Counted from the first letter of the stretch, positions 27,508 through 62,851 are shown. The stretch is 64,000 bases of DNA from an uncultured Nitrososphaerales archaeon (GCA_963695855.1 CAVOHZ010000008.1:64001-128000); one strand, 5' to 3'. The notes: a model not told the origin generated them from the letters alone. A program made the numbers and translations.

Positions 27508-27603
27508 GGGGCTATCGTCTAGCTTGGATCAGGATACCATCTTCAACTTGAGGGTATAAGCCTGGGGCGCTGGCGGTCGTGGGTTCAAATCCCACTGGCC
27601 CCA
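27508..27603 (+). tRNA. tRNA-Pro(GGG) with 20-nt non-canonical intron at 29/30 (27540-27559)
   Basis: Acceptor GGGGCTA/TGGCCCC-A; after splicing CCAGC-CT-GGG-GC-GCTGG; T-arm GTGGG-TTCAAAT-CCCAC; strict BHB (ATAC/GTAT helix, CA^T and AA^G bulges). Confidence 0.93.
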
Positions 27604-27646
27604 TTACCAACCTGTCTCTTTATTTAGACCCATTGTTATATAGGAT

Positions 27647-27762
27647 ATGGAAATAATGTCAATCAATAATGTTCTCGCTGAAATAATTTCAAATGAAGGA
27701 CACAATAAACAAGAACTGACTCCATATCTAATGTTCTAATATGCGATTAAAACAGAGATTAA
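27647..27762 (+). pseudogene. Integrase N-terminal stub immediately after tRNA-Pro
   Basis: ELTPYLMF*YAIKTE resembles ESNAYSLFVYAIRSQ at the start of the 43512 integrase. Confidence 0.5.
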
Positions 27763-27763
27763 C

Positions 27764-28005
27764 CTTGTAGAAGCAGAATAAAAGACTGCAAGCTACGACC
27801 CCAAGATAAAACCGATCTATCAGAGAATTGCAAAAAAAGAAAGGAAATCAGAAAGCAAGGGTTGCAGTAGCAAGAAAGATGCTCGTCAGTATATATCATG
27901 TATTAATAAGGAACGAATTGTACCATAGTCATAAACAAGATGTACAGATAAGAAAGAATAAAAAAATGATACAAAAAATAGGACATTAAAGGAAATTCAT
28001 ATAAG
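27764..28005 (+). mobile_element. IS110-family transposase C-terminal remnant and probable end
   Basis: LVEA.*...YDPKIKPIYQRIAKK/KGNQKARVAVARKMLVSIYHVL..NELY; one stop and one frameshift. Confidence 0.7.
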
Positions 28006-28176
28006 TAAAGCTCTACCTATCAGAAATAATTGTCAATCTAGGCATTTACATAACTGTTAAGGTAAGTCTAAAAGGATATAACATTAAATGAATAGTGGAA
28101 AAATTAGGTAAATGTTTGTCCATCAGCCATTTTTCAAATAAATATTCTTATTAACGAGTTTTAATTAATAGGTTCC

Positions 28177-29220
28177 ATGAAAGAATCAAGAAAAGCCAAT
28201 AAAATACTTTTAAGAAATGGATTAATTGTTGGGATATCTATCGCTTTATTTTCGTTATTTACTATCGGAGTGGAAGCACAACCCGACAATAAAGTGATAA
28301 ATATTCCAGTAGAAGATGGACCACTTTATCTGGCATATGATCCAGTAAATAAGAGGATGTATGTGACTGTTTTTTTAACTCCTAGTGTCGCCGTAATTGA
28401 TACTACTACAAACACAGTAACAGGCAGCCCGATTAATGTATCAGAAAATACTGGAATGGGAGACATAGAATATGATCCAGTAAATAAGAGGATGTATGTT
28501 ACTCATTTTCCGTATAATGTCTCCGTAATTGATACTACTACAAACACAGTAATAGACAGTCCAATTTCAGGAGGAGATAAACCAGTAAACACAACGTCTA
28601 GCTTCATAGAATATGATCCAGTAAATAAGAGGATGTATGTTACTCATTCTAATCTAGATAGCGTTCCTGTAATTGGTACTGTTTCTGTAATTGATACTAC
28701 TACAAACACAGTAATAGGTAGTCCAATTTCAGTAAGAGATGGACCTAGAGACATAGAATATGATCCAGTAAATAAGAGGATGTATGTGACTAATTTTTCT
28801 AATGGTACTGTCACCGTAATTGATACTACTACAAACACAGTAGAGAGTCATATTCCAGTAGGAGGTAATTCAACAACAAACATAGAATATGATCCAGTAA
28901 ATAAGAGGATGTATGTGACTAATTTTTTTGATGGTACTGTCACAGTAATTGATACTACTACAAACACAGTAATAGGCAGTCCAATTTCAGTAGGAAATGG
29001 TACATATGGTATAGAATATGATCCAGTAAATAAGAGGATGTATGTGACTAATTTTTCTAATGGTACTGTCACCGTAATTGATACTACTACAAACACAGTA
29101 ATAGGCAGTCCGATTGATGTAATAGATAGAGGAGCGAGAATAGAATATGATCCAGTAAATAAGAGGATGTATGTTGCTAGCTTGTTCGGAGGAACTGTTT
29201 CTGTGATAAATGTAAGGTAA
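28177..29220 (+). CDS. Exported YVTN/YncE-type beta-propeller protein
   Basis: Signal peptide and seven YDPVNKRMYV repeats, near-identical at DNA level. Confidence 0.9.
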   Translation: MKESRKANKILLRNGLIVGISIALFSLFTIGVEAQPDNKVINIPVEDGPLYLAYDPVNKRMYVTVFLTPSVAVIDTTTNTVTGSPINVSENTGMGDIEYDPVNKRMYVTHFPYNVSVIDTTTNTVIDSPISGGDKPVNTTSSFIEYDPVNKRMYVTHSNLDSVPVIGTVSVIDTTTNTVIGSPISVRDGPRDIEYDPVNKRMYVTNFSNGTVTVIDTTTNTVESHIPVGGNSTTNIEYDPVNKRMYVTNFFDGTVTVIDTTTNTVIGSPISVGNGTYGIEYDPVNKRMYVTNFSNGTVTVIDTTTNTVIGSPIDVIDRGARIEYDPVNKRMYVASLFGGTVSVINVR

Positions 29221-29629
29221 TGAGACCTATCAATAGCACCACCTTTCCCTGTATCTTCTTATATTTCTTAAATGTACTTCCACGAGGCTGGGATCGGATT
29301 CAGGAGGACTGATTATGCTGGAAAAATACGGTTAGTGGGCCTATTTATTCTGTAAACACTATTATTGTAAGGACTGTCACAGAATACCTCCGGAATTCAA
29401 TTGTATAGATTATCTCAATTCCATTTCTGAAAAAATTGCGTCTCCTTTAGGGACTATAATGACAACGCTAGGAGTAATTGTGGGAAGTATTGTGGGTGTT
29501 AGTAAATGGTTCTTTAGCCAGAAAAAAGTCGATGAGAAAAAAGATAATACATGATATTAACTTGTAATAAAAGAATATTTTACGCGAATTATTGATTGTG
29601 AAGTTTAGCACAAATAGTAAATTGAGCAA

Positions 29630-29708
29630 GGGACCAAAAATTAGGTCAAATTTGTTTCACATCCTACTGGCCCCATTGTAATATCAGTCCTCAAATTGGA
29701 TCGACTCA
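29630..29708 (+). repeat. att junction 1 (left arm + tRNA-Pro 3' end + arm A)
   Basis: gggaccaaaaattaggtcaaatttgt-ttcacatcctactggcccca-ttgtaatatcagtcctcaaattggatcgactca. Confidence 0.9.
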
Positions 29709-30060
29709 ATAATGTTAGTAGTGATTTATTAATTCAAAATATACAACGACAATTGTAACAACAACAAAAAGAAAAAGAAGAATTGTGATCTACCGCATGC
29801 ATACAATTGTATATGATTGTTCATATACTGGTATAATATAATGATTAGAAATCTTTTACAAATATTATGAATACTATTGTATTAGATTTTAAAATTCTTA
29901 TTTATCTTAATAAATTTGTAAATAAATGAATAATACAAGTAAAGGTTAATTTCCTAGTTTATATCATGTTATTACTTCATAAATTCTTCTACTGAAAATA
30001 AAGATTGAAATTGAGTTCAATGAGTGCTCTGGGATGTGACCTTTGACATAGAATTGTGTA

Positions 30061-30972
30061 TTATGCTTCAATAGCCTTAACTTCCGCTTTTATTTCTGGT
30101 CTGGAAGAAAAGAATTCAGAAATCTTTTCAGCAATTACGTCACAATCTTCTTCTAAAGCAAAGTGACCGGTATCAAGAATGTATGTCTCTATATCTTTTA
30201 GGTCTCTTTTGTATGGATGTGCTCCCGATTCTGGGAAGATATAGTCGTTTTTACCCCACACAACTAATGTAGGAGGCTGATACTTTCTAAAATTCTTTTG
30301 CCATTGTGAATATAGTGGTGGATTAGTTTTATAATCATAAAGCATTGCTAGTTGAATTGCAGCATTTGCAGGACGGTTCAATCTGGTCTGATCGATTATC
30401 CAATTGTCAGGACTGATTGATTGAGGATTTCTTGTTCCGTTAATATATTGCCACTTTGTTGTCTCTTCTGTTACCAAGTAATGAAGTTTCTTTTCATTTT
30501 CGAGAGTTTTATTATTCCACCAATCTTTAATGGGATTCCAAAATTCTCCTAGACCTTCATCATATGCATTTCCATTTTGTATAATAAATACCTGTACTTT
30601 TTCTGGCTGTATTGAAAATAGTCTGAAACCAATTGGTGCACCATAATCCATCATGTAAAGACTATATTTTTCCAATCCAATTGTTTCTGCAAATTCAAAA
30701 ATAATTTTGGCCATATTTTCAAAAGTATAATCAAACTCATCGACTGTTGGCATAGAGCTGTTTCCATATCCTGGATAATCTGGTGCTACAAGATGGAAAT
30801 CATCAGACAGTTTTTGTATTAGATTCCGAAACATGTGTGATGATGTCGGAAAGCCATGCAACAACAAAATTGTTGGGGCATTCCTTGGACCTGCTTCTCT
30901 GTAAAAAATATCGAGACCATTTATTTTGACAGTTTTGTATTCTATGATGTATTTGGTTTGGTATTTATTCAT
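30061..30972 (-). CDS. Alpha/beta fold hydrolase (epoxide hydrolase/haloalkane dehalogenase-like)
   Basis: LLHGFPTSSHMFR, APDYPGYG, nucleophile DYG, VWGKND, TGHFALE; likely start MNKYQ at 30972. Confidence 0.9.
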   Translation of the reverse strand: MNKYQTKYIIEYKTVKINGLDIFYREAGPRNAPTILLLHGFPTSSHMFRNLIQKLSDDFHLVAPDYPGYGNSSMPTVDEFDYTFENMAKIIFEFAETIGLEKYSLYMMDYGAPIGFRLFSIQPEKVQVFIIQNGNAYDEGLGEFWNPIKDWWNNKTLENEKKLHYLVTEETTKWQYINGTRNPQSISPDNWIIDQTRLNRPANAAIQLAMLYDYKTNPPLYSQWQKNFRKYQPPTLVVWGKNDYIFPESGAHPYKRDLKDIETYILDTGHFALEEDCDVIAEKISEFFSSRPEIKAEVKAIEA

Positions 30973-31125
30973 AAGTATATTATATAACAAAAGAAATATG
31001 AGTAAGCCGGAAATTTTTTTTCCAAAACTAGTCCGATATGGACAAGATTTTAGGTATAAATCATTATTAGATAGCAATAATGTCCAATATGGAAAAGTTA
31101 TTATCTAGTTATTTATAGAAAAATT

Positions 31126-32118
31126 ATGCTTGATAAAGTAGACAAAATTATTCTAGCTCAACTGGGAAAAAATGCCAGATTATCATCACAAGAACTACGA
31201 AAAATTCTTCAAGCTACTGGACATACTATTACAGACAGAGGAGTAAGACACAGAATACAAAAATTAGAAAAAAATAACGTAATTTTAGGATATTCGACAA
31301 TTTTAAATCCTAACATAATCTCAGAAAAAATTAATCGTACCGTTCTATTGAAATTCAAGTATGGAAGGTCGTCACAGGAAAAAATCAAACAATTAACTGA
31401 CTATGTGAACCAATCATCATTTTGTTTATATTCTAACCGATTAAGTGGCGATTATGACTGGATTTGTAATTTTATATTTGATTCAATCGAACAATATGAA
31501 TTGGAATCTGATAATTTTTTAAATAGATTTTCTTCATTGATTTCAGATTTTAGATCTTATGAATCTAAAATGATTAAATCTTCACCATATTCAGTTTACG
31601 ATGAGGAAGGAATTAAGGAGAAAAAAGAAAAGGTATTTCAAATTTTAAGTTCTGTTAGAAAGTACAATACTCTTAATGATAGATTACAGCTAATTGTAGA
31701 AGGTTTGGTAAAATATTTTGATGCTGCATTTGCCAGGGTTTGGTTTGTTGATAAAAATCAAAAATATCTGATTTTAAAGTTTAGCGCAGGAATGTATACT
31801 GGAATAAAGGGAGAATTTTCAAAAGTATCCATTAATTCATTAAAAATTGGTCCTGCAGTAAAAACAAAAAAACCGGTTGTCACAAATGATGTTGCAAATG
31901 ATCCAAGAATAAAGCATCCTGATTGGGCAAAAAGAGAAAATCTAAAGTCTTTTGCTGCATACCCACTGATATACAGAGGAAAATCAGTTGCAGTTTTAGC
32001 AATGTTTAGTAAAAAAAGGCTAACCCATGTTGAATTCGAGGTTTTAGGTATATTTTGTGACCAACTATCAAAAGAATTGGCTGGTTTTTTTGAGGCCAAG
32101 GACTTTTTATTGGAATAA
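31126..32118 (+). CDS. Lrp/AsnC-family regulator fused to C-terminal GAF domain
   Basis: LDKVDKIIL..L..NAR HTH, LSGDYD RAM domain, then V.TNDVANDPRI..PDWAKRE.LKSFAAYPL GAF. Confidence 0.85.
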   Translation: MLDKVDKIILAQLGKNARLSSQELRKILQATGHTITDRGVRHRIQKLEKNNVILGYSTILNPNIISEKINRTVLLKFKYGRSSQEKIKQLTDYVNQSSFCLYSNRLSGDYDWICNFIFDSIEQYELESDNFLNRFSSLISDFRSYESKMIKSSPYSVYDEEGIKEKKEKVFQILSSVRKYNTLNDRLQLIVEGLVKYFDAAFARVWFVDKNQKYLILKFSAGMYTGIKGEFSKVSINSLKIGPAVKTKKPVVTNDVANDPRIKHPDWAKRENLKSFAAYPLIYRGKSVAVLAMFSKKRLTHVEFEVLGIFCDQLSKELAGFFEAKDFLLE

Positions 32119-32318
32119 GAATTTCTAAAATATTTCTTGAGAAAAAAGAACTATAAAAACATTTAAAATAATACAAAACTAACAAACAATTTGTAAATTA
32201 CTGACTTCTGTTTTAATTTCATGTTTATATTCCTATTTTATAATCAAAATTTTATAATTATTTCAAATAAAATTTGCAGGAAAATTCACATTCTGCTGAT
32301 ATTATTTGACTGCTTTTA

Positions 32319-32819
32319 TTATGTAGCCTTTTTCTTTGACATTTCTGCGCAGAAACCTTCGGCTGCTTTTTTAATCTCATCTAGAGAAAGGTCTTTCTTA
32401 TGAGTTGCTATTGACCATTGATATCCAAATGGATCTTTTATCAATCCAACACGGTCTCCCCAGAATGCATCGTTGACTGGGTGTACTACAGTGGCACCTG
32501 CAGATACAGCCTGATTAAAAGTTGAATCTACATCATTGACATATAGATAAAGCCAAACTGGATTTCCTCCAACAGATTGAGGTGAAAAAGATTTCATTTC
32601 TTGGGATTCCTCAGATAACATAATAGCAGAATCTCCTATTATAATTTCTGCGTGCATGATAGTCTTATTATCAGGTCCATACATGCGATGACGTTCTTCC
32701 GCATTGAATGATTTTTTATAAAATTCTATTGCACGTTCTGCATCTTTTATGATTATAAAAGGTGTAATGGTATGGTAGCCATCTGGTACTGGTTTTACAT
32801 TAGCTGTCATATTTGTCAT
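32319..32819 (-). CDS. VOC/glyoxalase (PhnB-like) protein
   Basis: PDGYHTITP, IMHAEI.IGDS, FWGDRVG..KDPFG..W. Confidence 0.9.
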   Translation of the reverse strand: MTNMTANVKPVPDGYHTITPFIIIKDAERAIEFYKKSFNAEERHRMYGPDNKTIMHAEIIIGDSAIMLSEESQEMKSFSPQSVGGNPVWLYLYVNDVDSTFNQAVSAGATVVHPVNDAFWGDRVGLIKDPFGYQWSIATHKKDLSLDEIKKAAEGFCAEMSKKKAT

Positions 32820-32973
32820 AATTATTATTACTTTATTTAAAAATATCCTAAAGAGACTAAATAGAAAATATTTTAAAAGAATTCTAATAATTTAGGTTTA
32901 GTATATTAGACTATACTCTCATTGTAAGGAGAATTTGTTCTGTTTGGTTTTAAACTACATATTACGAATTAAT

Positions 32974-33036
32974 TTCACATCCATAAAACTTGGGATGGGA
33001 CCAACATTTAGGTCAAATTTGTTTCACATCCCACTG
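32974..33036 (+). repeat. att junction 2 (3'-truncated)
   Basis: ttcacatccataaaact...gggaccaacatttaggtcaaatttgtttcacatcccactg. Confidence 0.85.
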
Positions 33037-33197
33037 AAAAAGATACAAAAATGTAGCTAATCTGCCGAATACTTTGTGATTCATAATTAACTATTTAATT
33101 TAATAATAATGTTTTAATAATATACTTATTTTTTTGAATGTAAAAACGGCAATGGATTTTTTATAATCTTTAAATTGTATAATCAATATTTCAGATT

Positions 33198-34297
33198 GTG
33201 AGAGCAGCCATTTTCGAGAAACAAGGATTTGAGAATCTCAAAATCAAAGGTGATGTGGAAAACCCTAAAGTTTTAGACTGTGATGTTTTAATTAAAGTTA
33301 TAGTAGCAGCAGTAAATCCTATTGATTATTATGTGATTTCTGGTTATAAAACAATACAACAACAAAAGGAAACAGACCAACTACGAAAACAAAAAGCTCC
33401 TCAAACAACAGAACTACCAGTAAATCCTCTTCCCCATATCCCAGGAGAGGAGTTTGTGGGAGTAGTTGAAAAGGTAGGATCTCATGTTAGAACAATAAAG
33501 AAAGGCGATAGAGTTGCTATCTATACCAGAGTTTTTGATAATACTTGTGATATGTGTATTAGTGGTAATGAAATGCTGTGTAGAAACGGTGGCATAATGA
33601 GTGTTCTTAATAATGGAGGTTTTTCTGATTATATTTCAGTTCCTGAAAGAAATGTATTTAAAATTCCTGATAATATTGATTGGTATTCAGCTGTAAGCTT
33701 GTCAGTATCAGGATTAACTGCATTTGATGCCTTGAATGAGTCACAATTAAAGATTAATGATTCATTACTCATTTTTGGTGCATCGGGAAATACAGGTATG
33801 ATGGCAGTACAATTAGGTAAGAGAATGGGATCTAGAGTTATTGCAGTTTCAACAAAAAAGTGGATTAAAGATGAATATGGTGCAGATTATCTAATTACAG
33901 ATTATGATAATGTAATAGATAAAGTTAAAGAGATAACTAATGGAATAATGACAGATGTTGTAATAAATTCTCTTGGCAGCGATACCTGGAAAGATAGTTT
34001 TTCTTCAATTGGAGTTAATGGCAGATGTATTTCTTTTGGTACATTGACTGGAAGTAATGTAGAATTAAACATACAGGAATTATATTCAAAGCAGTAAAAT
34101 TAATTGGATCTAATAGAGGAAATATAGAAGAATTTAGAGAATTGATAGAATTTATATCATATTCTAGTACAATTAATGATCCCTTAAAAATTAAAGTTTG
34201 GAAAAGATTTAACCTTGAAAATATAGAACAAGCCTTTGAGGCTCTTAATGAGAGGAAAAGAGAAGGAAGAGTGCTATTGGATATAAATAAAGAATAA
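33198..34297 (+). pseudogene. Zinc-binding alcohol dehydrogenase (MDR) family, frameshifted at ~34094
   Basis: VNPID, HIPGEEF.G, CDMC.SG.E.LC, GASGNTG; the shifted frame continues VKLIGSNRG...REGRVLLDINKE* to 34297. Confidence 0.8.
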
Positions 34298-34623
34298 TTA
34301 AGTTGGAAAAAAATACTTGATAATAAAAGTACAATAGATTATAAAATATAACAGTTATTGTTATTTTATATTCGATATAAAATAGAAATTTCTATAGACA
34401 TCTAATCTTAAATAGGAAGTAACATTTTGAATATTATTGGTTTTAGAGATGGTACATTAAGATATAATTAGCAATGATATATTCAAAAAGCTAATTATTA
34501 GAGTAATAAAATTATAATAAGTAGAACATTTATTTCCTTTTTTATTGTTTAACTTATATTATTGATACCACTTAAATTGATTAAATTTCAATAACTATTA
34601 AAAATATTTTAACTCCTTCTCGA

Positions 34624-34701
34624 GGGACCAAAAAATAGGTCAAATTTGTTTCACATCCCACTGGCCCCATAGTGATATTAGTTCTCTAATTGGATTCACT
34701 C
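34624..34701 (+). repeat. att junction 3 (arm A, followed by integrase stub)
   Basis: gggaccaaaaaataggtcaaatttgtttcacatcccactggcccca-tagtgatattagttctctaattggattcactc. Confidence 0.92.
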
Positions 34702-34731
34702 GAAACAAAAATAAGGTGAACCAAGAAAAAA

Positions 34732-34995
34732 ATGAAATTTGAACAAAGTTTTGAAGAATCTAGTGCTTATTCATTATTTCTGTTTGCAGTTAGAACACAG
34801 GTAACAAGAAACTATTACCTGAGAAGGTTAAGAATTTTTTTCAATTTTATTAACTTAGAACCAGATAAACCAATGGAAGAACGATGTAATTATCTTGCTA
34901 AAAAAGGAACAAAAGATCCTAATTGGGTTCTGAGCTGTATAATAAAATTCTTGCAATTTCAAAAAGAAAGGGTAGAAAAGGTGTCATCTCTCTAG
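34732..34995 (+). pseudogene. Truncated tyrosine integrase (type-1 N-terminus)
   Basis: Clearly homologous to the first ~83 aa of 43512 (EQS.EES.AYSLF..A.R.QVTR.YYLRRLRIFF...FLQFQK.RVEK), then breaks off. Confidence 0.88.
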
Positions 34996-36050
34996 AGGCA
35001 TTCATAATATCCATACGCATTATCATAATTACAATACTGAATGAATTACTCGAGGGACATGATTTCTCTTTTACGAAGTGCCTGAATTAGATTCCTACTA
35101 TTATAGGTAATTTTTGGCCAACTTTTATTAATCGAAAAAATAAAATATTATTTACCTCAATATATTAAGGTAAGTGACGAGTACTTAAAAATATATAAAA
35201 GTTATAGTAAACCGACATATATGCCTAATAGTAACCTTTTAGCAATCAATAATAAATATATTAATACCATTATTTTAGAAGTATGTTGTATAACACATAT
35301 TAATGATAATGTCATATTATTATTATGAGAATAACTCATCGTCCTAAGATAAAAAAGGATCAGAGCAAAGAAAGGCAAAAGCTAAATAGTACATCTGAAT
35401 CCTATAATAGGGCTAAGGCAATAATTGCTTCTGTCTATGGGTTAGATATTATAGAAGACGAACCTATAAGATCTAGATAGGACAACAAATTTTAACATTA
35501 GGATTTCTATGATTAATGGCATTTATTTCAATGGTATATGCGTTGTTAGTTTCAAAATAACCGACAAGTATGTGATTCAAGGGACAAAATGTCTTCTTCG
35601 GGGGTATCAGCATCAAGATATTAACAGGAACGATAATCTACAAAATTCGTCGCAGATAATGAGATGCATTTTTGAAATTCACTAAAAATTAGACAGATAT
35701 ATAAAATTTCGTTTTAATTTTTTTATGGTAAACTCTATCTCGATTGACCTATTGGCTATGACGTCTTATTTTTAATTAAATTATTGTTATTGTGAAGATC
35801 GGCAAAATCATAATATTATTACCGTATCTAGGATATATAATTCTTATAAGAAAAAAATCTCTTAAAATAAACTATAATAATAGTATTGAAAATATTATAA
35901 CTGATCGAGTACTGACCGGTTGATGGTCATTATTGGAGGAGTGAAAATCTAATTATAACCTATAAGTTAATAGCTTTCGGAAATAGAAATTGCTTATAGC
36001 TTACAATCTATAATATTTTGAGTCCATTTTTAGTACCAATATCAAAACGG

Positions 36051-36087
36051 AAACCACTGGCCCCATATAGTATAAGGGGACAGTTAA
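36051..36087 (+). repeat. att junction 4 (5'-truncated, arm B)
   Basis: aaaccactggcccca-tatagtataaggggacagttaa. Confidence 0.8.
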
Positions 36088-36387
36088 TATTCATAAAGAT
36101 AACTTCATAATTTCTAGATATTAATTTTAATATTCTATCTTCTTAATCAAGTATAATTGCTTACATGAGGATAATTTTGGGATAGGCTTTAAATCTAAAA
36201 TTTAGTTTTATCTATCCTAAAAATAGGGTAAAAAAATCCTGGCAGCCCGACGAGCCAGTAATTTTCTCGGGTATATCCACTTCACTTCTTCTTCTAGCTT
36301 TCCTTAGTCTCCTTTACCTTGTTATTATTGTAATTGCAAATATATTACCTTCAATTATACAAATAAATACATCATACAAACATAAAT

Positions 36388-37056
36388 ATGACTCTTCACT
36401 GGACAACATTATCTACGTTTATATACCTTAGTAACGTATATATAATTATGACAACAAAAGAAGAAATAAGAAGAACCGAAAATATAGCTGTAAATGAACC
36501 AGAATTTAATGAAAGAAATGCAACTAAATTTAATAAAGACCACAGTAATTTCAATGAAAGAACAAATAAAGACTACAATAACACCTTAAATCAACAACAA
36601 GATATAATAAACAAGACACTCGACAACACCTTACACAATATAAAGAGAGCTACTGATGAAGCTACACGAGAAATTCCAAAATACACACAACGTATTGCTG
36701 AATATCAAGAACAAACCATTCAGACTATAAAAGACATTGCCTCTGACTTTATTGAAGCAGAAAAAGAAGTAGTAAACTCTTTTCACTCACAACAAGTAGA
36801 TAAAAAAAGTGGTGTAAACTTCACCGGACTATGGGACTTGTATAATCCACAGAAAATTGTTGAAGGTCATGCAGTACTGGTGAATAACTTTACAAGTTAC
36901 CTGTTAAATACGAGTAGTCTCATAAACAATGCTCTAGCATCAAACATGAGGGTATACAATACAGCATTAGAACAAACACGCGACAATCTAAAGGATTTGG
37001 TAAGAACAAATACCAGTTACATAAAATCAGTAGGACAATCAGTCAATAGACAGTGA
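36388..37056 (+). CDS. Helical Q/N/T/E-rich protein, possibly phasin-like
   Basis: INKTLD.T..NIKRATDEA.REIPKYTQ....YQEQTIQ; amphipathic helical pattern; probable start MTTKEE ~36448. Confidence 0.55.
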   Translation: MTLHWTTLSTFIYLSNVYIIMTTKEEIRRTENIAVNEPEFNERNATKFNKDHSNFNERTNKDYNNTLNQQQDIINKTLDNTLHNIKRATDEATREIPKYTQRIAEYQEQTIQTIKDIASDFIEAEKEVVNSFHSQQVDKKSGVNFTGLWDLYNPQKIVEGHAVLVNNFTSYLLNTSSLINNALASNMRVYNTALEQTRDNLKDLVRTNTSYIKSVGQSVNRQ

Positions 37057-37078
37057 TTTACCAGTAACTAAAAATCGA

Positions 37079-37580: not shown

Positions 37581-37593
37581 CTTACATTGAATT

Positions 37594-54559: not shown

Positions 54560-55267
54560 CTTAAATGGATTAAAATTTAAAAAATAACAAATCACTTAGT
54601 AATGTAAATTTTTGGGAAAAATTAAGTTCAAAAACCGTTTAAATGTATTATTTTATAAAACTTTTTAAATTTCGTCTATTTTCTTTTGTAAGAATTTTAG
54701 GGTTACATAAAATGTTTATGAATTATGCATTAGGCCTCTAACATAATATAAGAAGTTATAACATTCGCAATTTTACTACAAATACGGAGTTTTGTTGTGT
54801 GGTCATTTTGCCTAGTCGTAAATTTATTTATTATTATGATAGATATAATATTAATGGATTTAGAAAAAATAAAGATATCTTGTCTAATGTATAGTAGTTG
54901 ATTGATTCAAAGATACTTTATAGCACTATAATTATCCTCTGTGGTTCACCTGATGCTGTTGGACTTGCATAAGCTATATTACATTCAAAAGATTGACTAA
55001 CCGTATCAACTCCTAATTGAATGAGACAACCATAAACTACAGAACCTGTTTTCACCAGATTATCCATGGCTATGGGAACATCTACCATTTTGAGGAGAAA
55101 ATGAATCTTCTTGACCTGGTTGAATAACAGCCTTAGATCAACTTTTTTCATTTGAATTTCTTTGTCGGTACTTATCAGATCAACTCTTATTTTTAACAGA
55201 AAGAATACAAGAAATAGAAAGAAAACAATCAAAATAATATGTAAATTTATCTATTAAAAGGGTTCTC

Positions 55268-55302
55268 TGGGATTTGAACCCTTCTATAAAGTGGGAACAG
55301 TA
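55268..55302 (-). repeat. Inverted att-like site (type-2 arm) just downstream of the E2 gene
   Basis: Reverse complement tactgttcccactttatagaagggttcaaatccca matches 52120-52152. Confidence 0.85.
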
Positions 55303-55479
55303 CTTTGTGATTTGAATATATATGCACTATATTCGATTAACATTATTAGACTGAAACCGAATTGGCAGTATAATGACCTATTTTCCAGAACCAATTCGTA
55401 ATCTCTCCTTAAAAGGTCTTTTATCGATAAATCTTATCATATCATATTTGGGTTTGATGTATGGCTAGAAGAGTTCAGG

Positions 55480-55935
55480 TTACGGTTCTTGTTCTTCTCT
55501 CCAGCCCCATATCCCCTTCTTTTTCCATCTTATATAAGCAAAAATCCAAGTCTTGATCATTAACCCTACATCATATGAGCTATAGTCACTTGACCAATCT
55601 TCATCAGGTTTTAGATAACAGATAGTATTGTCTATGAACATATGGGGAGTTTGTGTTGGATCAAGATCAGGTTCTATTATACGTACTTTAGGAGGAAACA
55701 AAGGATAGTCTTGAACATATTCTATTAGAAAAATAAAGCATGTTTTTTCAAAGCTTCCTTCAATTTGAAGTTGTGTTACAGGTAATTCAATTACTAACCC
55801 AATATTCCCATTGTCCATAATGTGAAACTTCCATCTGGTATTCAATTCAAATGCTCCGGCTATCTCGTTTGCTTCGTATTGTATACTTCTATCACCATTT
55901 CCTACTACATTAATTGAGTTGTTCAAGTTAATCAC
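55480..55935 (-). CDS. Prokaryotic E2 (UBC-fold) conjugating enzyme
   Basis: IEY..DYP..PPKV....P......PHM.....ICY.....W...Y....V...IKTW; catalytic Cys retained; overlaps the E1 stop. Confidence 0.85.
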   Translation of the reverse strand: MINLNNSINVVGNGDRSIQYEANEIAGAFELNTRWKFHIMDNGNIGLVIELPVTQLQIEGSFEKTCFIFLIEYVQDYPLFPPKVRIIEPDLDPTQTPHMFIDNTICYLKPDEDWSSDYSSYDVGLMIKTWIFAYIRWKKKGIWGWREEQEP

Positions 55936-57184
55936 TTGTTGGAATGCCTTTGGAACATATTTGGCAGTCGGGTATCCGTTCTAATATACGGTCTTCCTGA
56001 TATAAGACAAATGTTTCTACTTTATGATCAGGTAGGTTCTTATTAAACCAATAATAAATATCGGACTTGAATGATCCATCCATGTCTTTTTCTTCTAATA
56101 AAGTACTCAAAATAAATTTTACCGTTGGCAGGGTTATAAGATCAATATCTATTCCTAGCCCTGGTTGTGTCAACATGTCCTTTATATCTCTTCCATAATT
56201 TTTAATATAATTTTTATCTATAATTTGTGGCTTTTGAAATATTGTGTCATCACCATATTTTTTATATATACATCTATAACATATGGATTTTTTACGTGGG
56301 TCTATCCTTATCATTATTCCTCCAGTGATTTTTTCAAATGCACCTGCAAATATAATTGGTATATTTCTTCTGTAACCAAATTCATTAATCGATTCATTCA
56401 TGATATTGTCTCCTGTAGCAGAAACTATAAGGTCAGCCTTAGACAATAAATGATCAAAAAAATCTTCTATATTTCTATTTTCTCTAGAAAAAGGTTTTTC
56501 GATTGTAGTAATGTTAATTATAGGAACTCTGTCTAGAATATAATCTTTAACGGCTAATGTTTTGTATCGTCCAACATCCTTCAAAGAACAAATATGCCTA
56601 ACTATATTATGATCCATTATAACATCACCATCTATTAAAGTTAAATTTCCTACTCCACTCTTAGCTAGATGCAATGCTATTAATGAACCACCAGAACCTA
56701 GCCCTATTATTGCAACGTTTTTTTTATTAATTATTGATAACGGATATTCAGGAGTAGCAATCCTGAGATATAAATTTGAATAATCCTGTATAATAACAAG
56801 TATTTCGTATAAATTATTAGTCTCACTATCTTTGATAAAAATTTTTAAAGAACTTTCCTCTATTAATTCTTTCAAAGATATTTTAAATTGAGGAAGATCT
56901 GATATATTAAAAGTTAAATGAGAGTTGGCTAATATAATATTACCTAGATTGGGTAACTGATACGGTCGTGTGTTGTTGACGATTTGATCAATTCTTTGTA
57001 TTTGATATGTTGATTCATCAATGATAAAACCATTAACGGAAAATAGAAACTTTTCATTATTTTGGAATTTTTTGTCTAATAATATTTCTTTAACAGGAGG
57101 AAATATAACTAGAAATATAGTTTTTGTGTTTGTATTTGTTTTATCCTTATTATATAATATTAATTTATGATCTCTCATTGACAT
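55928..57184 (-). CDS. ThiF/E1-like adenylyltransferase with ~140-aa N-terminal extension
   Basis: IIGLGSGGS, IDGD....HNIVRH, G.YK, ATGD, Zn pairs CYRC and CQIC. Confidence 0.92.
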   Translation of the reverse strand: MSMRDHKLILYNKDKTNTNTKTIFLVIFPPVKEILLDKKFQNNEKFLFSVNGFIIDESTYQIQRIDQIVNNTRPYQLPNLGNIILANSHLTFNISDLPQFKISLKELIEESSLKIFIKDSETNNLYEILVIIQDYSNLYLRIATPEYPLSIINKKNVAIIGLGSGGSLIALHLAKSGVGNLTLIDGDVIMDHNIVRHICSLKDVGRYKTLAVKDYILDRVPIINITTIEKPFSRENRNIEDFFDHLLSKADLIVSATGDNIMNESINEFGYRRNIPIIFAGAFEKITGGIMIRIDPRKKSICYRCIYKKYGDDTIFQKPQIIDKNYIKNYGRDIKDMLTQPGLGIDIDLITLPTVKFILSTLLEEKDMDGSFKSDIYYWFNKNLPDHKVETFVLYQEDRILERIPDCQICSKGIPTSD

Positions 57185-58178
57185 TTTTAGCTTTCTCCTT
57201 TAAATAAATATTGGATAAAGAAAAAGCTTTTAAACCTGTAAATACATTTTTTAACCTCCTTTTCAAGACACTAATTCTTGTCTTATCACTTAGATGAGAA
57301 GTCTTATCACTTAGATGAGAAGTCTTATCAATATAATATTGTGATCTATCCACCATATTTTTTATTTTAGGCAATAATTCTACTCTATTAAAAAAAATAT
57401 CTGAAAATAGAATTTCTTCAACTATTTTAGTAAATTTACGATCTAATGTAACGCCGATACTAATTCTATCATTCATAGATATATTGAGATGTGGAAATTT
57501 AATAAATACAGAATAGACAATTTTATCCTTTGAAGTATACCAATTATCATTTGAACTGTAAATTTCTTCATAAAATAATTTATAATTCCGAGACTTATTA
57601 GATTGTGAATGGAGAAATGTTTTGCCAGTATAGTCTTTCAAATTTTTCGATAGATTGTCAACGAAATTTCGAACGTTTATTGTTTTACCATTAAAAAATT
57701 TATTTGACTGTTGTATATTAGTTATCCTCTTTATTTGAAGATCTTTTTTAACAAATTCATTTTTATCAAAATAATAATTAGTGGCTATGAGATTATAATC
57801 ATAATCATAAAAATCTATTATTAATGATAAATAGTTTCGTTTATGGCTATTCTGTAAGAGAAACAACTCAGCTTGTTTATCATCACCATTACTGGGACCG
57901 CCATATCCTAAATGCTTATGCCAATTTCCTAGATAAGTCAGATTATTTCTTTCCATTTGTTTGGTTATATTTATTGCAAAATCTTCATCCATTTCAAAAT
58001 AGACAGGTGTTCTTTTTGCATTAGCTGATGGTAACTGAATTATTTTTAAGATTATTAGATATTCTCCTATGATCCTACCAAAAAGTAATCCACCTGTTTC
58101 AACGTTTTTGTGACTATTACTTTCTTCGATGATATCATCAATTGTATTCTCTGTTATGATTAACTTGTTATGACTCAT
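57165..58178 (-). CDS. JAB/MPN+ (JAMM) metallopeptidase with C-terminal extension
   Basis: ETGGLLFG and YLGNWHKH.....PS..D; 21-bp tandem duplication (DKTSHLS)x2 at ~57280-57328; overlaps the E1 start. Confidence 0.9.
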   Translation of the reverse strand: MSHNKLIITENTIDDIIEESNSHKNVETGGLLFGRIIGEYLIILKIIQLPSANAKRTPVYFEMDEDFAINITKQMERNNLTYLGNWHKHLGYGGPSNGDDKQAELFLLQNSHKRNYLSLIIDFYDYDYNLIATNYYFDKNEFVKKDLQIKRITNIQQSNKFFNGKTINVRNFVDNLSKNLKDYTGKTFLHSQSNKSRNYKLFYEEIYSSNDNWYTSKDKIVYSVFIKFPHLNISMNDRISIGVTLDRKFTKIVEEILFSDIFFNRVELLPKIKNMVDRSQYYIDKTSHLSDKTSHLSDKTRISVLKRRLKNVFTGLKAFSLSNIYLKEKAKNVNERS

Positions 58179-58333
58179 TGTAATGTATAAAAATGTTTAA
58201 TATTGGGAATGGTTACTTTGCCTGTATCGACATCAACCATATTATCTTCATCTTTTCTTCTAAGAACTACTTCTGCAGCTTTATTTTTTATCCCTTCTAA
58301 ATCTTCAAACACATGCTTCAAATCTCTGGGCAT
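58175..58333 (-). CDS. 52-aa ORF heading the JAB-E1-E2 operon (not in the ORF track)
   Basis: MPRDLKHVFEDLEGIKNKAAEVVLRRKDEDNMVDVDTGKVTIPNIKHFYTLQ*; its TGA overlaps the JAB ATG (ATGA coupling); TATA box 22-29 nt upstream. Confidence 0.7.
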   Translation of the reverse strand: MPRDLKHVFEDLEGIKNKAAEVVLRRKDEDNMVDVDTGKVTIPNIKHFYTLQ

Positions 58334-58354
58334 GATATTATATATTAATAAGAT

Positions 58355-58370
58355 ATATTTAAGCTCTGTT
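58355..58370 (-). promoter_or_regulatory. Putative BRE/TATA promoter of the JAB-E1-E2 operon (leaderless)
   Basis: aacagagc-TTAAATAT centred ~26 nt upstream of ATG 58333. Confidence 0.45.
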
Positions 58371-58659
58371 AATTTAAGCTATATTCACTTCTTCCATTCA
58401 ATTCGTTAATAAAATAATTCTCCAATATTGTATCATTATACATAGAAAGGAAGAATTGTAACCAGCTATAAACGTGAAATAGATTGCATTCATTTGTGAT
58501 ACATGAATAGTAATCATGGATAGTAATCATCAAAAGATTCAGTCCGATCCTTGAAATACTGGTTAACTCTTTCCATCACATTTTTCTGAAATGGTGAATG
58601 TAGATAATGTTTTAATTCAATTACGTTACATGCTTTATCGTACCATCATATACCACGCA

Positions 58660-59276
58660 GATTCCCGCTTGACATTTAAAAGCTGATTATGTTGAAACAT
58701 GTAATTGTGATTATGGCTGTCCATGTAATTTCAACGGGGTTCCTACGTATGGTTTTTGTAGAGATTTACTATTATATCATATAAGAGAAGGAAATTATAG
58801 AGTTATAAAATTAGATGGTTTAGATGTATTTAGTGCATGTTCTTGGCAAGGCAATACCTGAAGGAAATGGCACAATGCAACTCTATATTACTAAAAAATC
58901 ATTGGAAGATAATAATGCAAAACATGCATTAATTGATATATTTTCAGGTAAAGCTAAAGGAGAAGATCCTTTTGCTATCTTTGCAGGGACAATAAAATAT
59001 TTTCTTGAACCTCAATTTGTAGATATCAATGTCAAGATAGATGGAAAGAAAAGTAGTTTCTCTGTTCCCGATATCATGGATGTACAATTAGAAAGTTTTA
59101 TAAATCCTGTAACTGGGGAAGAACAAGATACAAAGATACAACTACCAAAAGGGTTTATTTGGAAACTTGCAGAAGCAGCAAAAACAAAGATAATGCGTAT
59201 TACTACTCCAAGTTTAAATTTTGATGATTCTGGCAAGAGTTCATTTTATTCAGTTGTAGAGTATAGAGGACCATAA
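58660..59276 (+). pseudogene. DUF1326 family protein, disrupted
   Basis: ADYVETCNCDYGCPCNFNG.PTYGFC motif in a different frame from the C-terminal ORF; in-frame stop and frameshifts. Confidence 0.8.
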
Positions 59277-59395
59277 CTGTAGTAATAATAATAAATTCTC
59301 TATCTTCGGATTTCAAATTTGATTGGAGTGGATCATAATTTTAGTAAGTAATTAAGGTTAAGTATTTTAAAGTAATTAAGGTAAAATATTTTATA

Positions 59396-60211
59396 GTGTA
59401 TAAAGTACAAAAAATAATTCTTGTATCTCTAATCTTTGCTTCTTTGATAGCATGGATGTTCTCTATCAGGCAACCTGCCATAATGATGGATACCATGATA
59501 ACACTAAATCCTATTACAGTATTGCTATTTACTTTAGTCTGGACAGTAGGAATGGTTGCCATGATGTTTCCAGCTATTGTTCCTATGGTGTTATTGTATA
59601 ATCGATTGATAATTGCAGAGAATAAGAGTGATTATCTTTTTGATATTTCTAAACAAAAAAATAAGCGACAATTTCCATTAATCTTTTCCATTAATTATTC
59701 TGTAATGACGATAGTTTTTGTTACATCTTATCTTTTAGTGTGGTCATTAACTGGAATTTTACTCTTGTTGTCTTGGTCTTTCTTAATGAATAACTTCTTC
59801 ATAACTTATGGAGCAAAAGAATTAGATATTGTGTATGGATTGCTACTTGTTATTACTGGGCTATACCAATTTAGTTCATTAAAAGGAAAGTGTCTGGGAT
59901 ATTGTGAATCTCCTTTAGCCTTCTTTACGAGGAGATGGAAAGGAAATGGGATAAGAGGTGCAATAAAAATGGGAACATATCATGGACTATATTGCTTAGG
60001 GTGTTGTTGGCCTTATTTTCTATTAATGGTAGCATTAGGATGGATGAATATAGCATGGATGGGTCTATTTGCTGGAATAATATTTGGAGAAAAAATATGG
60101 TCAAAGGGAATATGGATATCCAGGTTTTCAGGAATTGCTTTTGCTATTGTAGGAACCCTGACTATTTTTGGAATGATTACATTGCATAATGATATTATAA
60201 ATATGCGTTAG
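59396..60211 (+). CDS. DUF2182 family predicted metal-binding membrane protein
   Basis: W..GMVAMMFP, YQFS.LK..CL.YC.SP, G.YCLGCCW...L.MV.LG.MN..WM; usual partner of DUF1326. Confidence 0.9.
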   Translation: MYKVQKIILVSLIFASLIAWMFSIRQPAIMMDTMITLNPITVLLFTLVWTVGMVAMMFPAIVPMVLLYNRLIIAENKSDYLFDISKQKNKRQFPLIFSINYSVMTIVFVTSYLLVWSLTGILLLLSWSFLMNNFFITYGAKELDIVYGLLLVITGLYQFSSLKGKCLGYCESPLAFFTRRWKGNGIRGAIKMGTYHGLYCLGCCWPYFLLMVALGWMNIAWMGLFAGIIFGEKIWSKGIWISRFSGIAFAIVGTLTIFGMITLHNDIINMR

Positions 60212-60467
60212 TAAATTCATTTTGTCAAAAAGAAGATGATTCTATAGTGTTATAAGATTAATTATAAAAATATCTTTTAAGAATCGAGTTCGCCTAAATA
60301 TTCAGTAAGCTAGTCTGGAGTGGACTCGTCAATGAGTAGGGTTCGACTTGTATTTAGCTTTTATTATTAGAAACTTATTTTGAATTAATAATAATAAATA
60401 TTATTATAATAATAAGTTTGACTGTACATTTCCGAGAATATTATAGAAGCACATGAACGTAAAATTT

Positions 60468-60537
60468 GGGGCAAAAATTTAGGTCAGATTTGTTTCACAT
60501 CCCACTGACCCCATTTATAAATGGATTCATATACTTT
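60468..60537 (+). repeat. att junction 9 (arm C, followed by type-2 integrase stub)
   Basis: ggggcaaaaatttaggtcagatttgtttcacatcccactgacccca-tttataaatggattcatatacttt. Confidence 0.88.
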
Positions 60538-60584
60538 TTGTGTATCATACCATTTGTAGAAAAAAAGGAGGAATAAACCGGTGA

Positions 60585-60872
60585 ATGCTTATGAAACTAA
60601 TTAATACCATTGGAAAAATTCAAACGGTTCCAAATTCTACTACTAAATAAATATTAAATAAATTTCTTGGATATATGAAAGGTAATGGTTCTTCTTACTA
60701 TCATCAAAATAATAATCTAAAAGTTGTTATTCCATTTGCCATTTATTTGGATCCATTACTACATTCTATAATATCAATAAAAAAGAACAAATACTATCAT
60801 TTCTAAACATAAAAATAAAGAATCAAGAAGATGACCCAGATAAGAGATGGATTACAACATGGAACAATCACC
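60585..60872 (+). pseudogene. Probable integrase N-terminal remnant (type 2)
   Basis: MKL..TIGKI...PN...*..FL.YMK.NGSS..HQNNNLKV...KEQILSFL..KIK....DPDKRWITTWN; homologous to 62906; stop and frameshift. Confidence 0.7.
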
Positions 60873-60956
60873 TGGCTACATGTTAGCAATCATAAGATTC
60901 ATCGAAAATCGCTGAATAGCGAAATACAGGATCGTAGAATTCTATAATAGGTTCTA

Positions 60957-62051
60957 TTATACGAAAGAAACATGTGAAAGGAACAAGTCGTCAAAAAATT
61001 GAATAAAATCCTTATTATTAATAACATCATCTCCAAATATCCCAAAGCTTATTACTTTGCCATTTCCATATTCCAATTCATAAGCAGCTATAAGATAATT
61101 GTACATAGATTGAGCTTTATAATCTATTAAAATATTTACATTTGGATTGGTTATATATTGCTCTTCGTGATGAACGTATGAAAATGGATTGTTATTAAAA
61201 TCAATAGAACATGAACTACCACAACCGAAATTACTACCCACCCATTCAGTAGTTTCATCAGCCCATCTTTCTTTAATATCTCTCCAAGCCTTTTCTCCAT
61301 CGAAAGCCCAACGATGTCCTTGAACGAGTGTGATCTGCTGATCCATTGGATCATAAATAACTTCAGTATAGAATACATTTGAATCAAGTAAAATAAGGAT
61401 ACCGCCGTTTTCTACAAATTTTTTGAAGCTATAGTATTCTTCTTGAGTTACATATTCTTGGTGTCCTAGAATAATAAATTTATAGAGATTTTCGGCTTTC
61501 TCACTAAACAATAAACCATTATGTATATCTATGTCCGTTAAAAATGATACTTCCATATTCGGGGACAGGAATGAGATGCGATCAGCTAAATGTTTTAAAC
61601 CACTAGACTTCTTATTTAAAAATGCTAGTTCCTTGGTAGGAACCTGAGATGATAATAACTGAAGATCTGTAGTTACGAATTCATTTTGAGTAACTTTGCC
61701 ATATTTTTTAAAAAAAATATAAAATGAGTTGTCATAGGCTGCCATAGTGAAGGTAGGCAATACAAAGGCTATTTTGTTATCCTTTTCTTGGCTAAAAGGA
61801 GTAACGATAGATTTTCTATCCTCTTCAAGTGTTGGGCCACTTTTATATGAACGAAAATCTTTTATAATTTCTTTTAAATAGTAATTTTGGATAATTGTGT
61901 TATCTAAATTTTTTTCATCCATTTCGCTTGCATATTCATCTTCAAAATCATAATAAGTCTTCTCACTTTGCGAAAAAGTATTACCAACGGAGAGTATAGA
62001 TGAAGAAAAGATCAGAATAACAGACAGTGCCAAATTAAAAGTAATAAGCAC
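60957..62051 (-). CDS. Exported N,N-dimethylformamidase beta-subunit-like (GATase-like) domain protein
   Basis: P.FT.AAY, TDIDIH, ILGHQEY.T..EY.....FV.NGG.L..L.SN.FY.EV. Confidence 0.7.
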   Translation of the reverse strand: MLITFNLALSVILIFSSSILSVGNTFSQSEKTYYDFEDEYASEMDEKNLDNTIIQNYYLKEIIKDFRSYKSGPTLEEDRKSIVTPFSQEKDNKIAFVLPTFTMAAYDNSFYIFFKKYGKVTQNEFVTTDLQLLSSQVPTKELAFLNKKSSGLKHLADRISFLSPNMEVSFLTDIDIHNGLLFSEKAENLYKFIILGHQEYVTQEEYYSFKKFVENGGILILLDSNVFYTEVIYDPMDQQITLVQGHRWAFDGEKAWRDIKERWADETTEWVGSNFGCGSSCSIDFNNNPFSYVHHEEQYITNPNVNILIDYKAQSMYNYLIAAYELEYGNGKVISFGIFGDDVINNKDFIQFFDDLFLSHVSFV

Positions 62052-62686
62052 AATTACTTATTCCAAAAATTATTTAAATAGGGAATGTAGGACTCTCTCT
62101 ATACATTTGTTAATGCTTTCTTACAGTTAGTATCTTATTTTTTCTTATATAGTGACAATATAAAATAAAATTATATCCTTATATTCTTAGTAACAAATCT
62201 ACAAACGGTAACTTTTAAAAATCGGATCGTTATATAATCTACATACATCAATAACATATCTTATCAATTTATCATGGTCCATAAATCCATGAACCATGCA
62301 ACAAGGCAGGAAAGTTATCAAATTTAATTAGAGAGAATAACAAGTATTATGTCAGTTGGAAATGAGTTTTCCACTCGTTACCTCTCTAGAAGCATATATT
62401 GCTGAATTAGAAGCTAAAATATCGAATGTGATAATCACAAAAAAACTAAATAACAATCGAAAATACAAATTACAAAAGACGTTATTAGATTCTAATTCAA
62501 GAGGCAATCAAGATCAGACTTAAATAGATCATCCTGAAGCAATATTTTAAGGAAATTTATCAACGACTAAAAGAAAGATAAGTTCTGTTTGTTATTTGAT
62601 CCAATAACGAAAAATCCATTTGCTTTATAATATTGAAATAAGTACGGGATTAACTGTTATTAAAAAATCTTTAATCTAAAGAAGTA

Positions 62687-62851
62687 ACTGGTCGCACTTT
62701 ATAGAAGGGTTCACATCCTACTGGTTTGACTACGAAGCCATTGAACCCACTTTTATAATGAAATATATAATGCTAATTAAAAATCCATTTTTTAGGTCAA
62801 ATTTGTTTCACATCCCACTGGCCCCATTATATAAGTGGGGTCATATACTTT
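62687..62851 (+). repeat. att junction 10 (composite double site, arm C)
   Basis: actggtcgcactttatagaagggttcacatcctactggtttgactacgaag...taggtcaaatttgtttcacatcccactggcccca-ttatataagtggggtcatatacttt. Confidence 0.92.

Follow-up and report, generated by a model that had tools for sequence, protein, structure and literature searches.

How a single transfer RNA gene comes to be followed, over tens of kilobases, by displaced copies of its own 3′ end is the question raised by a stretch of 64,000 nucleotides (nt) from an uncultured Nitrososphaerales archaeon (GCA_963695855.1, CAVOHZ010000008.1:64001-128000), hereafter the window, with positions counted from its first letter. The window corresponds to C8:64001-128000, where C3, C5, C6, C8 and C10 denote contigs of the host genome (G000), and comprises one tRNA-Pro(GGG) gene followed by a series of gene modules (M1 to M10, Table 1) separated by such copies. 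The locus is probably a genomic island at this one tRNA gene, built by repeated site-specific integration and subsequent decay, and displays (i) the tRNA at one end, (ii) same-strand copies of the tRNA end, the core, between modules, (iii) recombinase remnants beside attachment (att) sites, and (iv) breaks in gene content that fall at the cores. Soil ammonia-oxidising archaea (AOA) of the Nitrososphaeraceae possess large and variable genomes, and their gain of flexible genes is poorly documented.

The host assembly comprises 3.55 Mb in 11 contigs, with a completeness of 99.87% and a contamination of 1.61%, and the array lies on a contig of 601 kb. The genome encodes archaeal amoA and, judging from named homologues and the titles of metagenome-assembled genomes (MAGs), belongs to the Nitrososphaeraceae. 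ARAGORN reports a single tRNA in the window, at 27508-27603, with an odd anticodon call; reading by eye places an intron of ca. 20 nt in the anticodon stem, and when candidate introns were removed in silico, tRNA-Pro(GGG) was, with 139 variants, the commonest call among those that scored as a tRNA. An orthologue in another genus (L120) shares the same 3′ half and is called directly as tRNA-Pro(ggg) with an intron. A second intron-bearing tRNA gene of the window, at 9811-9917 on the minus strand (Rfam, 45.6 bits), is not called by ARAGORN.

The core, TTCA[A/C]ATCCCACTGGCCCCA, matches the window nine times at up to two mismatches, the tRNA included and always on the plus strand, compared with a mean of 0.00 matches in 100 dinucleotide shuffles of the window. 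Its last 15 bases, at up to three mismatches, match ten times against 0.42 expected, adding the copy at 36051-36065. The displaced cores end at 29675, 34669, 38018, 43445, 49495, 52211, 60513 and 62826, with a weaker copy ending at 36065 and a truncated core of 14 nt at 33023-33036 that is preceded by a complete left arm. The total is thus the tRNA copy and ten displaced cores, all on the plus strand, the same ten places at which a previous reading of the window, made from the sequence only, had reported the tRNA end in one orientation.

That sequence-only reading had also attributed a conserved left arm to nine of the ten copies, and a profile of the arm (P1) with its core recovers exactly nine, ending at 29675, 33036, 34669, 38018, 43445, 49495, 52211, 60513 and 62826 (E values from 1e-11 to 1e-15); eight of them were used to build the profile, the copy at 33036 lying outside the training set. 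Variants of the arm precede the cores at 38018 and 62826 (P1′) and at 43445 (P1″), and the core at 49495 follows a composite arm, P2-like and then P1. The core at 36065 keeps just its last 12 nt (36054-36065) behind a different left arm, P3, which is found also at C8:548902 and in relatives. Inverted and direct repeats of the tRNA 3′ end can be read by eye, without statistics, in the arms B, C, E, P1 and P2.

The right arms of the window fall into five classes. The three described previously, A, B and C, are present at the junctions, and two more, D and E, have to be added. The A arm follows the cores at 29675 (degenerate), 34669 and 43445, the B arm those at 36065, 49495 and 52211, the C arm those at 60513 (degenerate) and 62826, and the E arm that at 38018; the D arm is the anchor tRNA's own flank, from 27604, and the right side of 33036 fits none of the five. 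The A, D and C arms lead directly into integrase genes, whose remnants begin 60-90 nt past the arm; the simplest view is that they are the P′ arms on the integrase side of three types of element. The B arm stands directly 3′ of a genuine tRNA-Pro(GGG) in six genomes of three genera, four from the host genus (G026, G048, G065 and G067) and two from other genera (G127 and G094), and in G026 this tRNA copy is the sole core copy; for these reasons the B arm is probably the native downstream flank of the tRNA, or a copy of such a flank. The E arm is strongly conserved over ca. 45-60 nt, and core and E arm occur together in 18 of 25 genomes of the genus; a conserved open reading frame (ORF) was sought behind E arms and none was found, conservation ending after those ca. 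45-60 nt. No recombinase homologue follows the B or E junctions of relatives (0/29), a type 2 integrase fragment within the E module of locus L112 standing behind a degenerate C-arm junction of its own. Because none shows a recombinase, the B and E modules may not be decayed autonomous elements.

Whatever the class, the left arm is shared: P1 pairs with every right-arm class, both in the host and in other Nitrososphaeraceae MAGs, which bears out the proposal of a tRNA-anchored, att-delimited array with hybrid P-core-P′ junctions. Among 36 exact P1-core junctions from other MAGs, the right side is E in nine, A in seven, C in seven, B in one, D in one and another sequence in nine, with two at contig ends. 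The exact junction 31-mer, sought in 185,579 species genomes, was found in Nitrososphaerales MAGs only. A tRNA-like sequence at C6:177,455-177,552, not called by ARAGORN, has the last 25 nt of tRNA-Pro(GGG), a different body and a possible CGG anticodon loop, and is followed by a D-like flank; it may be an element-borne tRNA copy.

Integrase fragments are found at all four window positions previously indicated (34732, 43512, 60585 and 62906), with type 1 standing behind A (1a) and D (1b) arms and type 2 behind C arms. The claim of one full-length integrase, at 43512, does not hold: the gene (43512-44746) reads in two frames and has lost one base near 44035 compared with intact homologues of 411 amino acids (aa), which occur in metagenomes and are 93-94% identical to its product. 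A short-read contig from run X1 spans 43826-44204 with no differences, so that the frameshift is not an obvious assembly error, although X1 may be the source sample. Used as a query, the C-terminal half retrieved 1132 proteins at E ≤ 0.001 among 1476 candidates. Pfam gave no match to either half of the gene even at E ≤ 1, and a PDB sequence search with both integrase types returned nothing useful; HxxR and GH...Y motifs can be recognised by eye. The intact homologue P0004 scores 21.6 bits against Phage_integrase (PF00589), below the gathering score of 27.1, and the distant members P0066 (28.6) and P0084 (28.2) pass it, which places the type 1 family among the tyrosine recombinases. A scan of IMG/VR with an intact homologue found no relative, and thus nothing ties the elements to known viral contigs.

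All core-adjacent integrase copies of both types in the host genome are broken. In addition to the 43512 pseudogene, they comprise the type 1a stub at 34732, a truncated gene at C3:358110 and a 5′-truncated, frame-shifted gene at C3:367953; the type 1b copies behind D arms carry an in-frame stop (C5:25832) or frameshifts (C8:155768); and every type 2 stub behind a C arm is defective. Intact type 2-like integrases of 427-448 aa occur at C8:2892, C8:291544 and C10:1147485, two of the three directly behind other tRNA genes and all three with C-like arms of their own. At the type 2 sites (C8:2734-4238, C8:291544 on the minus strand, C10:1147352-1148795 and window 62827-62850), the right arm repeats the targeted tRNA's 3′ end in inverted orientation, 9-10 nt past the tRNA end and followed by a shared ATATAC; this pattern, read by eye in three target contexts, hints at core-type binding sites of this integrase family.

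Relatives of the type 1 integrase are found immediately 3′ of tRNA genes. ARAGORN was run on 34 of 80 metagenome loci encoding them, and in this sample the integrase gene begins 60-90 nt behind tRNA-Pro(CGG) in eight loci, tRNA-Met in three, tRNA-Lys in two and tRNA-Arg in one. By sequence, four loci (L019, L050, L091 and L092) place it after an intron-bearing tRNA-Pro(GGG) body and an A arm, and further loci show P1-core-A-integrase, or P2-core-A or P2-core-D followed by the integrase. Integrative elements that target tRNAs are ordinarily placed in this way. Three loci (L020, L021 and L025) encode type 1 integrases 83-84% identical to the query P0004 and carry the same A arm with another core, TTCAAATCCCTCTGAGCCCG, and a P2-like left arm altered to match it, as though a single lineage of integrases had changed its target tRNA.

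The array extends well past the window, with junctions at C8:130313, 149086, 155737, 159351, 164019, 172081 and 172949, and thus comprises at least 81 kb and at least 17 junctions, to at least C8:172,949. The P1-core profile gives 25 strong matches in the 3.55-Mb genome, of which 21 belonged to its training set and four are new (C8:47300, 97036, 149086 and 332115); 14 of the 25 lie in C8:93-173 kb, all on the plus strand, and the others stand in small groups on C3, C5, C10 and other parts of C8, in both orientations and without a tRNA. Across 61 genomes of the family, host included, most have one core copy, the tRNA itself, whereas the host has 23 at up to one mismatch and the next genomes seven and six (G035, included in this survey only, has two); the counts are lower bounds, since many genomes are fragmented MAGs with contigs ending at the tRNA.

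Comparison with relatives locates the breaks in homology at the cores, as the previous reading had anticipated for module boundaries, although some shared blocks are smaller than a module. G048 and G067, both from the host genus, agree with the host upstream of the tRNA (94-97%) as far as its final base, after which a B arm takes the place of D; in them, the first half of the array is represented by scattered pieces on other contigs, and window 44001-64000 has no match of at least 90% longer than 113 nt. Locus L007 of G059 equals C10:1161396-1165085 at 96% to the end of the core, where it enters an A arm and a type 1 integrase while the host enters a C arm and a type 2 stub, and in locus L005 of G048 the homology with C8:149057-153144 resumes at the P arm of the junction. 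Within the host, M4 has a second copy at C3:451953-449921 (88-93%) with cores at both ends, and the final 790 nt of M2 have a copy at C10:1363902-1364698 (97%) that ends at the junction. The hydrolase-regulator pair of M2 is shared as a block smaller than the module. The genes downstream of the tRNA in G026, with its single core copy, have no counterpart in the host genome.

The repeats, their common orientation, the broken integrases, the intact relatives beside tRNA genes, and the strain-specific content with breakpoints at the cores are observed directly, and a simple course of events would produce them. Small elements with a tyrosine integrase would recombine an attP site, consisting of P arm, 20-nt core and P′ arm, with the 3′ end of the tRNA gene, each integration restoring the tRNA and leaving a displaced core behind the element. 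Successive arrivals at the restored tRNA would then give tRNA-core-P′(n)...P(n)-core-P′(n-1)..., and hence hybrid junctions on the same strand; integration would probably occur at displaced cores too. After arrival, integrases would decay by frameshifts, stops and deletions while the cargo is kept and the modules become fixed, and recombination among cores, together with the arrival of composite or integrase-less units, would mix the arm combinations. The order of these events, a crossover within the core and the entry of the B and E modules by the same route are what we infer from the arrangement, and the system in the host genome is presumably largely fossil by now.

Several observations weigh against serial integration and decay as a complete account. 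Junction clusters exist also at the tRNA-less places on C3, C5, C10 and elsewhere on C8. Neither cores nor integrases show a gradient of decay with distance from the tRNA, and the tRNA-proximal M1 is already without an integrase. The B arm, apparently a native flank, recurs at least five times within the array, which serial insertion at one site does not predict, and the B and E modules are free of recombinases in relatives as well. Finally, no excision or integration product was found in public soil metagenome runs, whose contigs are short, of low depth and do not bridge the junctions, so that gaps, differences in depth and absent circles are uninformative there.

Part of this evidence is what an active cassette platform would give, in which every junction is a usable att site and an integrase, resident or incoming, acts in trans to cut out, reinsert and shuffle the modules, those lacking an integrase included, in the manner of integrons or of the accretion of integrative and conjugative elements (ICEs) with cis-mobilisable elements (CIMEs). 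Such activity is unlikely, although it finds support in the core-bounded second copy of the integrase-less M4, in the absence of recombinases from B and E modules across the genus, in the joining of P1 to all right-arm classes in other MAGs and in the circulation in metagenomes of intact integrases at 93-94% identity. A module with a dead type 2 integrase also occurs twice, at C10:1165072-1167205 and C8:548913-546790 (92%), with the same broken frame, different left neighbours and a homology that begins within the core; however, this homology ends at a repeat resembling an insertion sequence (IS) and not at a junction, and with differences of 3-12% between duplicates, the copying is not recent. 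In run X6, one contig (depth 3.8) links the sequence left of junction 62826 with an A-arm variant and an integrase start (62828 to 43480), a joint that the platform would explain; its arm is diverged, and for that reason the joint is most simply the arrangement of another strain, as a joint of 49433 to 62742 through truncated core copies in run X3 also appears to be. Against a working platform stand, moreover, the lack of an intact cognate integrase in the host, whose intact type 2-like genes sit at other tRNAs with their own arms, the lack of a consensus fold at the junctions, and multi-gene cargo on both strands.

Still, the repeated B arm, the recombinase-free B and E modules and the duplicated modules go beyond plain decay; they fit mobilisation in trans of the CIME kind, and also recombination among copies of the array, and they hint that integrase-less modules may have moved in trans. 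It is a tentative and rather doubtful extension that the B and E modules are distinct non-autonomous att-flanked cassettes, moved in trans by the type 1 and type 2 integrases of co-resident or incoming elements through P1 and core, with the tRNA-Pro locus serving as a lineage-wide exchange platform. If true, the tRNA-Pro locus of soil Nitrososphaeraceae would be an archaeal counterpart of CIME accretion or of integron cassettes.

Very unlikely is a reading of P1-core as a dispersed repeat akin to a miniature inverted-repeat transposable element (MITE), or as one spread by segmental duplication or homologous recombination without site-specific integration. It would accommodate the junctions that lie, in either orientation, away from tRNAs at a dozen or so further places, the position of M7 between direct repeats of ca. 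150 nt, and a genome that harbours genuine dispersed repeats and ca. 50 IS240-like copies. In contrast to the genome-wide scatter expected of a MITE, however, more than half of the strong matches (14/25) stand in one stretch of 81 kb, all in the same orientation and behind the very tRNA that supplies their core sequence at its 3′ end; specific arms lead into integrase genes, the relatives of these integrases sit at tRNA 3′ ends, and homology with related genomes stops exactly at the core. That the array is an assembly artefact, with island versions of co-existing strains concatenated at shared repeats, is scarcely credible in spite of the shared repeats, the strain-variable region and public-run contigs too short to bridge junctions, given the 601-kb contig in a nearly complete 11-contig assembly, repeats of just 20-150 nt, modules that are not duplicates of one another as alternative island versions would be, and fragmented relatives that carry several junctions on single contigs.

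Compared with known systems, serial integration and decay at a tRNA has close precedents. In the tycheposon islands of Prochlorococcus, as the available text describes them, nothing but a partial tRNA lies between neighbouring elements, new arrivals push older ones inward, and integrase fragments and partial tRNAs mark older events (Hackl et al., 10.1101/2020.12.28.424599). The present locus resembles those islands in its tRNA-specific tyrosine recombinases, elements beside an island tRNA, partial-tRNA separators and scattered integrase fragments, the cargo of the tycheposon islands being niche-related; it differs from what is described there in its archaeal host, in a far higher density (at least 17 junctions at one tRNA), in a non-tRNA left arm shared by nearly all junctions and in cognate integrases that are all dead. 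Pfam recognises neither a primase/helicase replication module nor shared tycheposon hallmark genes in the 33 window ORFs, and the likeness is one of layout.

The survey of thaumarchaeal integrated mobile genetic elements reports 39 of 68 in tRNA genes, with short att sites (median 17 bp), and its text states that elements with tyrosine recombinases in archaea and bacteria can form arrays by re-use of the site (Krupovic et al. 2019, PMC6563490). Like its cryptic integrated elements, the elements considered here target the 3′ part of tRNA genes, intron-bearing ones included, use a short att site (20 nt) and combine an integrase with cargo lacking virus or plasmid hallmarks. That survey covers single elements and tandem pairs, with a maximum of five elements in four tRNA genes in one genome; its main text does not mention Nitrosocosmicus, and the text compared here describes no long array with recurring arm classes (its supplementary att table S2 falls outside this comparison). 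Among other sources, as far as their accessible text goes, a paper on skin Nitrosocosmicus describes islands flanked by integrases, and a preprint on marine AOA describes short tRNA fragments within flexible islands.

CIMEs are integrase-less, att-flanked elements that accrete in tandem with ICEs and can be mobilised in cis. Integrase-less, att-flanked modules in tandem with integrase-bearing ones at one site, for which co-excision and mobilisation in trans are conceivable, recall this accretion; on the other hand, no conjugation or packaging genes are seen in the window, and no resident integrase is intact. Tandems of phages and ICEs are on record as well (PMC13651849, as far as its accessible text shows).

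The comparison with integrons, made by the sequence-only reading, is not supported. Integrons comprise an array headed by IntI, attI and a promoter, attC sites that form imperfect hairpins, and mostly single promoterless genes in one orientation. The likeness consists of cargo units parted by recombination sites and stacked at a fixed anchor, but all features tested (array head, attC fold, single-gene cassettes) fail. The array head lacks both an integrase and attI, the first ORF past the tRNA encoding a beta-propeller protein; RNAalifold predicts no pairs (0; consensus energy 0) in 18 P1-core units, so that an attC-like fold is rejected; the modules are multi-gene and use both strands; and many bring an integrase remnant of their own, within the array and behind its own arms.

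The mechanism is therefore not new, having been described for tycheposon islands, and the locus is a well-documented, unusually dense archaeal example of a known process. The proposal that so dense an array had not been characterised in Nitrososphaerales stands to this extent, as the full-text literature searched contains neither such an array at tRNA-Pro in Nitrososphaeraceae nor such density at one tRNA, supplementary element lists lying outside that search. One tRNA-Pro gene has gathered at least 81 kb of strain-specific genes, a concrete route of gene gain in soil AOA, with cargo that includes oxidoreductases, hydrolases, a glycosidase, copper-handling proteins and E1/E2/JAB proteins, and intact relatives of the integrases are common in soil metagenomes. 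The conserved junctions could serve as markers of gene flow among Nitrososphaeraceae in long-read metagenomes, and the att sites with their natural integrases are candidates for a genetic toolkit in archaea that so far lack one.

The modules measure 1.4-8.3 kb and contain up to ca. eight ORFs each, on both strands. Their cargo was annotated with Pfam on the 33 window ORFs and with PADLOC, the Pfam scan being confined to the part of the array in the window, where neither search recognised replication, conjugation or capsid genes.

Table 1. Anchor gene, modules and annotated cargo of the tRNA-Pro array in the window.
Feature	Position	Strand	Description
tRNA-Pro(GGG)	27508-27603	+	array anchor, attB side; non-canonical intron; recurring core is its last 20 nt
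M1	27604-29675	+	D-type right arm; no integrase; P1 arm and core at 29628-29675
M1 cargo	28177-29220		beta-propeller/lactonase-like ORF (Pfam)
M2	29676-33036	+	degenerate A arm; P1 arm and truncated 14-nt core (33023-33036)
M2 cargo	30061-31077	-	alpha/beta hydrolase
M2 cargo	31126-32118	+	HTH-GAF regulator
M2 cargo	32319-32819	-	glyoxalase-family gene
M2b	33037-34669	+	P1 arm and core at 34622-34669
M2b cargo	33198-34097		zinc alcohol-dehydrogenase-like ORF (Pfam)
M3	34670-36065	+	A arm; type 1a integrase stub 34732-34995 (87 codons, then decayed); P3 arm and partial core
M4	36066-38018	+	B arm; no integrase; P1′ arm and core
M4 cargo	36388-37056		222-aa ORF of a multi-copy family
M5	38019-43445	+	E arm; no integrase; P1″ arm and core
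M5 cargo	38403-40361	-	NDH2-like oxidoreductase
M5 cargo	40687-41334	-	cupredoxin-like
M5 cargo	42178-42768	+	RTX-repeat protein
M6	43446-49495	+	A arm; type 1a integrase pseudogene 43512-44746; composite P2-like and P1 arm and core
M6 cargo (among others)	46422-47435		LGFP-repeat protein (Pfam)
M7	49496-52211	+	B arm; no integrase
M7 cargo	50409-51491	-	metallophosphoesterase (Pfam)
M8	52212-60513	+	B arm; no integrase; P1 arm and core
M8 cargo	52913-54559		GH1 glycosidase
M8 cargo	55480-58178	-	E2/E1/JAB trio
M8 cargo	58824-59276		DUF1326
M8 cargo	59396-60211		PpoB2 copper chaperone
M9	60514-62826	+	degenerate C arm; type 2 integrase stub from 60585, with stops; P1′ arm and core
M9 cargo	60957-62051	-	DMFA2_C-like ORF (Pfam)
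M10 (start)	62827-64000	+	C arm; type 2 integrase stub 62906-63127; runs past the window

The D arm of M1 comprises ca. 150 nt resembling the D arms at C8:155737 and C5:25779, both of which are followed by a type 1b integrase, and the A...P3 layout of M3 recurs in metagenome locus L050. For the NDH2-like gene of M5 there is a paralogue of 89% identity at C10:1262125-1264088, with matches of 85-88% in genomes of the genus, so that some island cargo is a second copy of an ordinary gene. The direct repeat that flanks M7 on both sides, ca. 150 nt long, consists of P2-like arm, P1, core and B arm.

The trio of M8 comprises E2-like (55480-55935), E1/ThiF-like (55928-57184) and JAB-like (57165-58178) genes on the minus strand, adjoined by an ORF of 104 aa (54918-55232). 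It matches the PADLOC E2, E1-E2 and JAB models, with E values down to 2e-29, and no cyclase gene was recognised in the module; the segment 54918-58178 is possibly a defence module based on ubiquitin-like conjugation that forms part of the island's cargo.

Several other repeats touch the array. A repeat of ca. 200 nt at 38114-38313, just past the E arm of M5, has ca. 30 copies at 81-85% across the contigs of the genome and looks MITE-like or like a small RNA gene. Within M7, a repeat of ca. 360 nt at 49661-50019 is 97-99% identical at C10 1354501, 1407611 and 1746097, and this segment, together with 58341-59007, shows a very high summed depth in soil metagenome contigs. A gene family of ca. 730 nt with ca. 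50 host copies (for example C8:153144-153605; also L001:9734-10384) encodes an IS240-type DDE transposase (Pfam, E value 1.1e-10), with copies within and beside the array, outside the window.

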